Assembly (NCBI RefSeq): GCF_963506605.1
Contig: NC_083277.1
Span: 17,670,001-17,734,000, forward strand
DNA length: 64,000 nt
Direction: 5' to 3'
Source of the DNA: Zootoca vivipara
Lineage: Eukaryota
Shown in pieces: positions 41,205 through 54,383 of the stretch. Each line of letters opens with the position of its first letter. Within the stretch, counting starts at the first letter, position 1. Under the pieces are notes generated by a model. The model was not told where the DNA came from, ran no database searches, and saw only the letters and a program-made list of their open reading frames with translations. Position numbers and translations under genes: made by a program.

Positions 41205-41722
41205 TTAAGAGCACAGCTGGAGGGGAGTTGATGAATCTACAATCCGGAAAAAGGGGAAAACTTCCTCCCCTTCAAAATCAATTGACTTGAAAATAAAGAG
41301 GCGGGTCTTATCTTCAGCATCATAAAAAGCCACAGTCCCTGCTTCATAGTTCAAAGAAACTTGGATCTCTATTGGATCCTCTTCTGGTTCCAAAATGGTA
41401 GGAGGTGAAGTCAGAGCTTTGTACTGATCATAACTAAAGCCCAACGCCCAGATCCCTTCATCAGGTTCAAAATCAATTTCTCTATCCCTCTCCACAGACT
41501 CTCTGGCTACGCCTACAGCCCAATTGTCAACATCTTCGACATCCACCGTCCAATAATGTTTCCCAGAGCTGAATCCCTGCGTTCCAAGCACACAGCGAGC
41601 GTATTGAAATCTCTTTGGATTGTAGGGGTAGTCCTGACGGACATCTCCCCACCATACTGATTTTCCATCAGAAGACACAACATACCGGGGATGGGCTGTT
41701 TCCAGATCCAACACCACATTTT
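41205..41722 (-). CDS. TRIM-D terminal exon (PRYSPRY)
   Basis: ENVVLDLETAHPRY...SGKHYW...FPFFRIVDSSTPLQLCS*. Confidence 0.93.
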
Positions 41723-51900: not shown

Positions 51901-54383
51901 AATCCTCCTCCTCCACGCGATGCTGCTGGGTGCTTTGTCTGTGCTGCAGCAGCAGCAGCAGCCGTTTCCAGGCGCCGAGCCGTGGCAGGAGGAGGAGGAT
52001 TCAAAGTGCTACAGAGCACTGCTGCGTCGCAGAGGCTCGGGACTCTTCATGCGGCACTGCTGGGCACTGACCCGGCAAGCTGCCTCCTCCTTCTGCTGTG
52101 GCTCAGGGCGCTCCACGCAGCGCTGCTCCGGCCGCCTTTCTACCCCCCCCCCAGGCCCCAGCTGTTTGTCGGCGCTTTGTCAGCGCGGCGCTTCAGCAGC
52201 AAGGTCCCGCTGGCTGGGGCGCTCGGCGGGCCACATGACGAGGTCTGGCGGGCCGGATTTGGCCCGCGGACCTTGAGTTTGACACCCGTGCCTTATAGGG
52301 TTGCCACACTCAATAGAAGACAGGACTTCTGTGCCTTTAATTGCCCTGCTCTCTTTTGAGTCTGGAAACCCTAAAGAGAAACCAGCAGACCCTTTGCTTG
52401 GAAATTAAACAAAGGGTCTGCTGGTTTCTCTTGTAAGGTTTCCAGACTCAAAAGAGAGCAGGTCAATTAAAGGCACAGAAGTCCTGTCCTCTATTGAGTC
52501 TGGCAACCCTAATGCCTTAAAAGGAGGAGTCGTGCCAATTCTTACCAATAGCTCCTGGCATGGCTTCTCACCATTTGATTTAACCGACAGAATCTTGTTT
52601 CTTTCTTTTTTCAGTTCCTTTAGATGTCCAAGTAGTATACCCTAAGGACAGACAATGGATGATACGGTAGATTTAAAGTTTCTGCAGACTGAGAATGTTT
52701 TATTTGCAACAAGCAGCAGACTTGAAAATGTTTAGGGTGGGGCAGAGGGAGCCTGCAGCTGACCAGAAGTGGCTGGGCTCTCAACTTCCATCAGCGGCAG
52801 TGGCACAGGTCCGAGTAGGGTTGCCAGACTCAATAGAGGACAGGACCTTTGTGCCTTTAATTGCCTTGCTCTCTTTTGAGTCTGGAAACCTTAAAGAGAA
52901 ACCAGCAGACCCTTTGCTTGGAAATTAAACAAAGGGTCTGCTGGTTTCTCTTTAAGGTTTCCAGACTCAAAAGAGAGCAGGGCAATTAAAGGCACAGAAG
53001 TCCTGTCTTCTATTGAGTCTGGCAACCCTAGGTCCGGGAGAAGTGGCCAAAACACACCCAACTCCCACACCCTCCACACAAAAAGCAGGACGGTGCTTAA
53101 AACACACACCACACAATACTGGGGATCCATCCAGGCTCTTTTATAAAGTCTGGATTTTTTTTTTTAAAAAAAAGTTGTCCTTTTTTAAAATTAGCACTTC
53201 ATGTGGCAACCTGCAAAAAAATATATATCCAGAAAACGAAAAGGCAACCATTTCACTATAAATGCTATGTGCAAGGAAGACCCTGAGACAGAAACAGCTG
53301 TGGCTGCTTAAGACAGGAATTGCCAGCCTTTGGGGGCCAATGGACACCTTGGAATTTTGAGGAAAAATTACTGTAAACCCCAGTCACAAAATGGCTGCCA
53401 GACTTGAAAGAGGATGGCCCACAAAATGGTGGGGGGAGGCTGCCCACTACTGGGGGCGAAGGGTGGGTCTCTCTGGAAGTACCAAAGATCAACCTTGGCA
53501 GAGAGCTCCGTGAACCACTATCACGTGACGTTTCAAACAGGATTGGCACAGTGTGGTTTGAAGCTAACCCTGATTGTAGATTTGAAACACCAGCTCTGAA
53601 AAGAGGAGAAATATACTAAGTAAGCTATCTGAAGAAGTGTGCATGCACACGAAAGCCCATACCAATGACAAACTTAGTTGGTCTCTAAGGTGCTACTGGA
53701 AGGAATTTATTTTTTATTTTGTTTCGACTAAGTGAAGTGTTCACCTTCTTCTGGGGGGGGGCGCTACTCACCTGTGACCCTCAAGGTGCTGCTACGCTAC
53801 AACTCCCATCACCCCTGGCTGGGTTTAATGGGAGTTGGGCTCAAAACACTTGGAAGTCCACAGGTTCCCTTTCCCTGTTGTATATCATCGTTATATCACA
53901 ACTGCACCAGCCATACACATCACGCTACTGCATTCTTTGCTAAAATGCACCAAGTCATTTTACCTTGTAATCTGCAGCAGCTGTTTCTGCAGAAATAACA
54001 CGGTGGTTTCTGTGAGCCTTGGATCTCTCGCAGAACATACAAATAAGGGTATTTTCTGTTTTGCAGAAGAGACTCAGAGGCTTCCTGTGCTCCTTGCACA
54101 TTTTCTCCCTTCCTGGACTTTGCTCCAGCTGCAGGCGGAGCTGCTTAGCTGCTTCCACCATGTTCGCCAGGCGCCGGTTGGGTTTTAGGCTTTGCCAGGA
54201 AGCTTTTCTTCTGCAATCCGGGCAGCAAATGGAAGCTCCCGATCTTTTCCAATACTTAGTGATGCAGGATCGGCAAAAGTCGTGCTGGCACTCCGTGATC
54301 ATTACTGGATCCTTGAAATAATCCAGACAAATGGAACAAGTGACTTCATCCTGAAGGTGTTTTGCAGGATCCGCGGTAGCCAT
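41205..54383 (-). CDS. TRIM-D: RING-B-box2-coiled-coil-PRYSPRY E3 ligase, ~487-492 aa; divergent RBCC joined to an A/B/C-type PRYSPRY
   Basis: Exons 54383-53964, 52641-52546, 50704-50474, 47409-47387, 45561-45443, (possible 15-nt 44348-44334), 43652-43596, 41722-41205. Classic 96/231/23-nt TRIM exon sizes, phases compatible. Confidence 0.82.
42443..42784 (-). mobile_element. Full-length Sauria SINE (nested in an L1-like fragment)
   Basis: Minus strand GGGACCCAGGTGGCGCTGTGGTTAAACC...GGTTCGAATCCC tRNA-like head through to (ACCTTT)n tail. Confidence 0.9.
47561..48874. mobile_element. Non-autonomous Tc2/pogo-like DNA transposon with internal GC-rich minisatellite
   Basis: TA|CCGTGTTTCCC...GGGAAACACGG|TA termini. 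Tandem GC-rich units at ~48210-48620. Confidence 0.75.
51097..51600. repeat. (GGAA)n / polypurine tract with internal ~220-bp duplication
   Basis: Direct inspection. Confidence 0.9.
52296..52511. mobile_element. Palindromic hAT MITE (TAGGGTTGCCA family)
   Basis: Same family as 20931-21144. TSD (g/a)tgcctta. Confidence 0.88.
52816..53030. mobile_element. Palindromic hAT MITE (TAGGGTTGCCA family)
   Basis: TSD ggtccg(a/g)g. Confidence 0.88.
53964..54383 (-). CDS. TRIM-D exon 1 (RING + B-box2)
   Basis: [27 protein letters not shown]...CQHDFCRSC...CPDCR...CKEH...HRNH; AAG|GTAAAA donor. Confidence 0.92.

Follow-up and report, generated by a model that had tools for sequence, protein, structure and literature searches.

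A row of neighbouring TRIM genes that appear to share one recognition domain behind two different ligase modules raises the question of which module was moved, and onto which gene. The case considered here lies in a 64,000-nucleotide stretch of the Zootoca vivipara genome (NC_083277.1, positions 17,670,001 to 17,734,000; hereafter the window, to which all unprefixed coordinates refer), which contains four minus-strand TRIM genes, A (12591–5130), B (26184–16838), C (38253–30454) and D (54383–41205), and one plus-strand gene, E (58965–64000, extending ~2.3 kb past the window), each an intact seven-exon open reading frame (ORF). An earlier reading, made from the sequence only, set the domain-shuffled TRIM at the coordinates of D and held that the ancestral side could not be decided from the window. 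Our sequence comparisons correct the first point and overturn the second: they identify D as the intact donor and A, B and C as the chimeras, and the clue to polarity, a PRYSPRY fragment at 3386–3117, lies inside the window. Very probably, A, B and C each join the N-terminal RING, B-box plus coiled-coil (RBCC) half of an old squamate gene to a copy of the PRYSPRY tail of their neighbour D, the original PRYSPRY likely being that fragment. The same locus was described in the common lizard under the name harbiTRIM (Boys, Quinlan and Elde 2025, PMC12262214); A–E correspond to the five genes synthesized and tested there, four of them (A–D) in clade I and one (E) in clade II.

D encodes 487 amino acids in exons of 420, 96, 231, 23, 119, 57 and 518 nt, with RING, B-box, coiled coil, PRY and SPRY following one another in a single ORF, the layout of a class IV TRIM (Pfam RING, B-box, PRY and SPRY were checked on the D exons and on proteins P0001 and P0145, and the coiled coil was assigned by position and homology). 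Exons 1–5 (54383–45443) carry the RING and B-box Pfam matches and the coiled coil of what we consider the ancestral D-type RBCC. The last two exons, exon 6 (43652–43596, 57 nt) and exon 7 (41722–41205, with the PRY and SPRY matches), belong to a ~4.4 kb 3′ module on the minus strand (39743–44154) that comprises the end of intron 5, exon 6, intron 6, the PRYSPRY exon and 3′ flank, and copies of which lie behind A, B and C. Upstream exons differ between the two gene types in length as well: in A, B and C exon 1 has 444 nt, exon 3 171–189 nt and exon 5 98–107 nt, and exons 2 and 3 together encode 89–96 amino acids, compared with 109 in D.

The divergence between D and A/B/C changes in a step along the gene. 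Amino acid identity is 48–51% in exon 1 (synonymous divergence, dS, ~2.3) and 24–35% in exons 2–5 (synonymous sites saturated), against 78–80% in exons 6–7 (dS 0.23–0.24). Local alignments, which flatter identity, give 92–93.5% for intron 6, 88–90% for exon 7 and 85–90% for the near flank, so that both the shared 3′ part and the remoteness of D exons 1–5, as described in the sequence-only reading, hold. Over its 5′ part D aligns to A/B/C at two places only: one is a palindromic repeat of 216 bp, the other a segment that lies upstream of the gene. The palindromic element occurs in three copies, 94–96% identical, one in a B intron (20930–21145) and two in D introns (52296–52511 and 52816–53031). 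The upstream segment (54949–55404) is locus-specific; over gap-free columns it matches part of the 3′ flanks of all four genes A–D at 77–82% identity, and it is possibly the remnant of a lost tandem D copy.

Trees were built separately for each module from 34 of 57 paralogues retrieved from the Zootoca genome, each gene being represented by one isoform, with turtle, tuatara and alligator outgroups (88 rows for RING/B-box, 47 for the coiled coil, where one D isoform lacking exon 2 was omitted, and 88 for PRYSPRY). In the RING/B-box tree, ABC-type genes form a single clade (support 100/99) of 15 rows that includes Rhineura, Gekko and six iguanians, with Rhineura paired with Gekko (99/91); D-type genes group at 92/61 (99/94 with one long-branch paralogue, 100/100 in a smaller set) and E at 100/99. 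The coiled-coil tree recovers ABC, D and E clades, each at 100/99–100 (D at 100/100), with D sister to E (96/89); within ABC, the gecko branches first, followed by iguanians and by Rhineura with the lacertids (97/83), which is the order of the squamate species tree. The PRYSPRY tree is organized differently. There, lacertid ABC and lacertid D are sister groups (100/96) and Rhineura D branches next outside them (99/89), the iguanian ABC-type genes form their own group inside the D-type clade, and the Rhineura and Gekko X-type domains (a distinct PRYSPRY type described below) join the fragment at 3386–3117 in a distant clade (100/99). A mixture model with Paroedura added returned the same result. 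Gene E, a non-chimeric TRIM with its own PRYSPRY that serves here as outgroup, forms one clade in all three trees. Approximately unbiased (AU) tests rejected a single clade of all ABC-type PRYSPRY domains (p 0.004 and 0.007) and also rejected a clade of lacertid ABC with lacertid D in the coiled coil (p 5e-5) and the RING/B-box (p 3e-7). The RBCC and PRYSPRY trees, the comparison that the sequence-only reading had proposed as a check, are thus incongruent (AU p 3e-7 to 0.007). The likeness of D to E that it also reported is present (46% identity over exons 2–5), and the sister relationship of the two coiled coils (96/89) points to old D/E kinship as its source and not to recombination. A derivation of the ABC RBCC from E, suggested by best matches, was rejected, as ABC is a clade of its own and D is the type that groups with E.

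Un-recombined relatives of both gene types were sought among 368 proteins gathered by word-limited searches (40 proteins with the D PRYSPRY, and the best 120 of 296 and the best 120 of 1175 with the two RBCC types) and by a full HMMER search with Rhineura P0145 (the best 150 of 7700); counts include isoforms. All 20 proteins with a D-type RBCC, from geckos, skinks, a cordylid, Elgaria, Rhineura and Podarcis, carry a D-type PRYSPRY, 71–94% identical to that of D, and none of the 20 carries any other. The ABC-type coiled coil was found in 18 proteins, of which 13 have a D-type PRYSPRY (6 lacertid, 7 iguanian), 3 an X-type PRYSPRY and 2 none; three iguanian isoforms without a full coiled coil fell below the threshold and outside this count. 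The same ABC-type/D-type hybrids are annotated in Lacerta and in two Podarcis species. The three X-bearing proteins are from Rhineura (P0145), Paroedura (P0238) and Gekko (P0148, partial), and their PRYSPRY is 44–46% identical to that of D where it is complete; the Gekko model runs into an H2A like the one downstream of A. By eye, the leopard-gecko protein ‘right1’ in the supplement of PMC12262214 likewise combines an ABC-type RBCC with an X-type PRYSPRY, and the iguana harbiTRIM an ABC-type RBCC with a D-type PRYSPRY; these two and the sand-lizard D protein lie outside the 368 and outside all trees. No chimera appeared in Rhineura or Elgaria among the matches listed by these word-limited searches, and no iguanian D-type RBCC among the matches listed or in the supplementary lists of PMC12262214 that were drawn on. 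From these protein sequences we identify both un-recombined parents, the D type and the ABC type with X, which the sequence-only reading had proposed to look for.

The direction of the swap is recorded in what A, B and C left behind. Gene A is the last of the array. Of the copies of D's far flank, the one beyond A has diverged most, and past it, on the minus strand between the 3′ flank of A and a histone H2A gene, lies an X-type PRYSPRY remnant (3117–3386) that lacks its 5′ half and has two breaks in the frame and a small deletion inside. Of the 197 proteins that it matched, Rhineura P0145 scores best (69.7 bits, against 48.5 for the next); the remnant is 56% identical to this protein over 83 amino acids, other rows reaching at most 41%, and it groups with the Rhineura and gecko X domains at 100/99. 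An intact X-type PRYSPRY was not found in this genome (99 matches scored, best 44%). The remnant is likely the original sensor of the ABC-type gene. The H2A gene (1179–1649, minus strand, 157 amino acids), which serves as the synteny marker, has a long Ala/Lys/Pro-rich C-terminal tail, with a similar tail in Gekko. Traces of the ancestral ABC-type linker also persist in intron 5, on the upstream side of exon 6, which derives from D: a minor exon in C (32440–32508, upstream of the junction), and related pieces in A (7406–7377), in C (from 32877) and in B (19742–19707), all on the minus strand. The Podarcis muralis linker matches that of the Rhineura ABC + X gene at 47% over 34 amino acids (pairwise E 3e-7). 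The ancestral linker is long and Pro/Gln-rich, with tandem repeats in Rhineura, and it is kept by agamid chimeras and absent from Anolis and Sceloporus chimeras (linkers of P0145, P0025 and P0031). Between them, the remnant and the retained linker exons settle which way the swap went, and events of this kind seldom allow that.

The join itself is best preserved in B, which has the fullest surviving junction region. Homology between D and B ends at D 44154 and B 18664, and 44029–44154 is common to B and D with no other match in the genome; a shared transposon was considered for this match and rejected, as the genome holds no further copy. In A and C, homology to D ends earlier, at D 43828, via a deletion. 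The junction interval from ABC-type to D-derived sequence is 18665–19563 in B intron 5 (minus strand), repeat-rich in the part searched. The sharp stop at ~44155 described in the sequence-only reading is real as the end of the match to B. Since the searched part of the B junction interval is mostly repeats, 44155 marks how far homology has survived and cannot be read as a mapped breakpoint. The proposal that the junction keeps the frame stands, exon 5 ending in phase 1 in B, C and D and, judged by exon lengths, in A.

Splicing of the D RBCC to its PRYSPRY was examined in raw RNA reads of the same species label (three runs, ~6 in 100 of each run read, and one contig set). The joint from 45443 to 43652 (exon 5 to 6), named beforehand as a check, was found 4, 0 and 47 times in the three runs and in one contig of a fourth run; the joint from 43596 to 41722 (exon 6 to 7) was found 7, 0 and 29 times and that from 47387 to 45561 (exon 4 to 5) 2, 0 and 15 times, so that one of the three raw-read runs shows zero D joints. 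With the incongruent trees and the un-recombined parents, this splicing bears out the proposal that RBCC and PRYSPRY modules of different ancestry were joined within an intron. Together, these data demonstrate two module histories, both parents, an X remnant and a phase-1 join.

The arrangement could have arisen as follows. The ancestral order along the direction of transcription would have been D, an ABC-type gene with X, and H2A. In a lacertid ancestor, after the split from amphisbaenians, at least ~4.4 kb of D (from intron 5 to at least 39743 in the 3′ flank) would have been duplicated into a phase-1 intron, setting D exons 6–7 behind ABC-type exon 5 and the linker exons and displacing the original PRYSPRY. 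Unequal crossing-over between homologous PRYSPRY copies may then have produced three tandem PRYSPRY-spacer-RBCC units; the D–C, C–B and B–A spacers are homologous to one another, and D's far flank shares 98% identity with the copy behind C and 82% with the copy behind A. The copies in A–D may still exchange sequence. Across A/C, B and D, informative sites fall into clusters (92 runs, a number as low being reached in 0 of 20000 shuffles), a pattern that can also come from neighbouring mutations, and the signal is one of overall clustering, no single long conversion tract among A–D being significant (p 0.29–0.38). In the sand lizard, the D and ABC-type proteins have, by eye, 73 identical PRYSPRY residues in common.

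Other histories of the same sequences have to be weighed against this one. Tandem duplicates with a fast-evolving RBCC and a conserved PRYSPRY, or an artefact of assembly or annotation, would account for the shortened, long-branched ABC coiled coil with no recombination at all; synonymous sites and introns step in the same way as amino acids, however, the AU tests reject a shared RBCC clade of lacertid ABC and D, the hybrids recur in Lacerta and Podarcis annotations and RNA reads confirm the D joints. We consider this explanation refuted by the contrast between saturated synonymous sites upstream and a dS of 0.23–0.24 downstream, and give it a negligible chance. Scarcely more credible is that D is itself the chimera, a foreign E-like RBCC joined to a PRYSPRY native to A/B/C. 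D is indeed the odd one of the four genes in the window, and its exons 2–5 are nearer E than A–C, yet the D-type RBCC carries the same PRYSPRY in 20 of 20 proteins, in lineages as far apart as geckos, skinks, the cordylid, Elgaria and Rhineura, on which we reject it; D exon 1 has no close paralogue in the genome (best 52–57%), and the ABC-type parents with another PRYSPRY, together with the remnant, indicate the opposite direction.

The number of swaps is a closer matter. Separate origins in lacertids and iguanians are mildly favoured; the less probable course, although one to be taken seriously, is one swap in the lacertoid–iguanian ancestor beside both parents, followed by differential copy loss and by conversion from D that later overwrote the lacertid chimera's 3′ module entirely. 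This single-swap course departs from our preferred explanation only in when the swap happened and how often. It would explain why iguanians have the same combination (7 proteins), why ancestral linker sequence is kept in both lineages and why Rhineura sits with Gekko in the RING/B-box (exon 1) tree (99/91); an RBCC tree in which lacertid and iguanian chimeras group to the exclusion of Rhineura withstands the AU test (p 0.24), and the clustered informative sites and the sand-lizard residues speak for conversion active at the locus. A clade of lacertid and iguanian chimeric PRYSPRY domains is nevertheless rejected (p 0.033 and 0.029), so a single swap needs total overwriting. The best RBCC trees place the X-bearing gene of Rhineura as sister to lacertid ABC (97/83; 88/79), the far end of the copied flank is merely ~0.21–0.23 substitutions per site from D, and Rhineura and Elgaria yielded no chimera among the matches listed. 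Agamid chimeras retain more of the linker, a part of which no trace was found in lacertid intron 5; the difference in junction position was not counted as proof of separate origins, because later loss explains it equally well. The shared iguanian combination and the p of 0.24 count against two separate swaps, and further points temper the reading of A, B and C as products of a swap from D: the groups compared in the AU tests were chosen with the trees already in view; exon 5-to-6 splicing in A/B/C is predicted from intact ORFs, annotated proteins of four lacertid species and the cloned iguana cDNA of PMC12262214; the remnant, a short one, offers 83 comparable residues and sits on a long branch; the Gekko protein is predicted from a fused gene model and has half a PRYSPRY; orthology and synteny beyond the Zootoca genome come from predicted proteins and not DNA; and the exact breakpoint is lost in B, where the searched part of the junction interval (18640–19160) is mostly dispersed repeats, and deleted in A and C.

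Several further features of the locus were recorded. The array bounds a local TRIM/butyrophilin cluster on its left side, the 200 kb examined farther left having yielded no TRIM, and D exon 1 has 155 matches in the genome, the majority of those listed on the same chromosome. In C, exon 6 (31557–31613) contains a 15-nt duplication that creates two possible donors, giving KWKR or KWKRGKWKR, and annotated proteins show both; the C 3′ flank contains an internal duplication (28577–29443 against 29450–30329, 79%), which is a seam of the recent A/C duplication. The motif GAAANNGAAA, which we take to be like the interferon-stimulated response element (ISRE), lies upstream of the ATG at −155 in A, −195 in B, −178 in C and −74 in D; it thus occurs within 400 nt upstream in 4/4 genes A–D, against 14 occurrences across the whole window, E having a variant only. 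Among these upstream sites, a stricter ISRE pattern matched that of A alone. To the left, a near-identical H2A copy and a third match lie ~3.6–7.7 kb outside the window (L040). A second PRYSPRY pseudogene, on the plus strand and with several stops, runs from the end of that flank (L040) to window position ~200 and resembles, by eye, the iguana ‘ligase_right1 PRY-SPRY only’ entry in the supplement of PMC12262214. The right flank contains long retroelement-like open frames of 1255 and 935 amino acids, judged from their first residues (L003:3-3767 and L012:4853-7657). Elsewhere in the genome, an intronless TRIM with a 517-amino-acid open frame (L060, G000:C4:35253100-35254900) is likely a retrogene, nested in trees among paralogues at 6–10 Mb of C2.

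The locus, its antiviral role and general recombination among its genes are already in print (PMC12262214), with widespread recombination detected by GARD and RDP4, PRY-SPRY gene conversion, a per-domain identity heat map and distinct antiviral profiles. That A–D are harbiTRIM clade I genes follows from their identity with the published ones and from an intact Harbinger transposase nearby, a 475-amino-acid open frame matching DDE_Tnp_4 (E 9e-32) ~13–15 kb left of the window (L039:5326-6750). By eye, D matches common_lizard_ligase_left1 of the supplement, and A, B and C match supplement proteins bar minor linker exons or alternative donors, C being ‘hTRIM’. In that study the iguana harbiTRIM blocks dengue and is a potent flavivirus restriction factor, its antiviral activity being RING-dependent and capsid-targeting; for the common-lizard genes antiviral activity alone is reported. 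The innate-immune role guessed in the sequence-only reading agrees with this work. What this analysis adds is the polarity of the swap, its two parents, the sensor that was discarded and the possibility that iguanians repeated the event: the main text of PMC12262214 has no match for ‘chimer’ and mentions no X remnant, polarity or possible repeat origin, and no other account of a harbiTRIM chimera was found in the literature searched, where ‘harbiTRIM’ occurs in one work only.

Among known systems, TRIMCyp genes likewise have the recognition domain of an antiviral TRIM replaced behind the RBCC, independently in several lineages (PMC6677749 and, for fish, PMC3137616); the new domain there is cyclophilin A, retrotransposed in the mammalian cases. 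In A/B/C, by contrast, the newcomer is the PRYSPRY of a paralogue, copied at the DNA level along with intron 6, a portion of intron 5 and 3′ flanking sequence, from a donor that is adjacent in lacertids and with which sequence would still be exchanged; it is not a retrotransposed, intronless, non-PRYSPRY domain. Mammalian TRIM6/34/5/22 are also tandem antiviral RBCC-PRYSPRY genes with lineage-specific gain and loss, and differ in that the study of them found no recombination signal in its alignment (PMC10709114); in A/B/C an entire module was transferred between paralogues that date back to the gecko split. The mix-and-match TRIM system envisaged from the sequence is right in that modules were swapped, and overstated in that the sole direction found is D PRYSPRY onto ABC-type RBCC.

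For TRIM5 it is established that the PRYSPRY sets target specificity (PMC3208668). By analogy with TRIM5 and with PMC12262214, the PRYSPRY of these genes would bind viral capsid and set specificity, and the RING would act through ubiquitin; PMC12262214 reports that the viruses restricted by the D-type gene of the gecko are those restricted by the iguana gene, which fits PRYSPRY-set specificity. The swap would then have given one sensor lineage a second promoter, a second ligase and a shorter dimerization scaffold, with freedom to diverge from D. The published genes were sorted by PRY-SPRY only, and the gecko D-type gene was called the orthologue of the iguana harbiTRIM. Sorted by RBCC, the iguana gene is ABC-type by eye, and the leopard-gecko member of that type is the synthesized ‘right1’, taken here to be the ‘highly diverged paralog’ of that paper; iguanian genes show the same hybrid build, and the published dengue-blocking one likely has it too. 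Orthology is thereby revised: the iguana harbiTRIM and lizard A–C likely have two parents each, and the gecko ‘orthologue’ shares the sensor half only. Three of the four module combinations exist in nature (D+D, ABC+X and ABC+D), and since members of each were already synthesized for PMC12262214, the shares of PRYSPRY and RBCC in specificity and potency can be addressed with existing data. We give even chances to the fuller history in which the same two TRIM paralogues, ~200 million years old (an age from PMC12262214), were fused alike twice, in lacertids and in iguanians, with the X-type sensor discarded both times and the D parent lost by iguanians. If so, harbiTRIM would be a chimera that arose by convergence, and this PRYSPRY-for-PRYSPRY exchange would parallel the repeated origins of TRIMCyp, an ABC-type ligase scaffold with a D-type capsid sensor having been favoured repeatedly.

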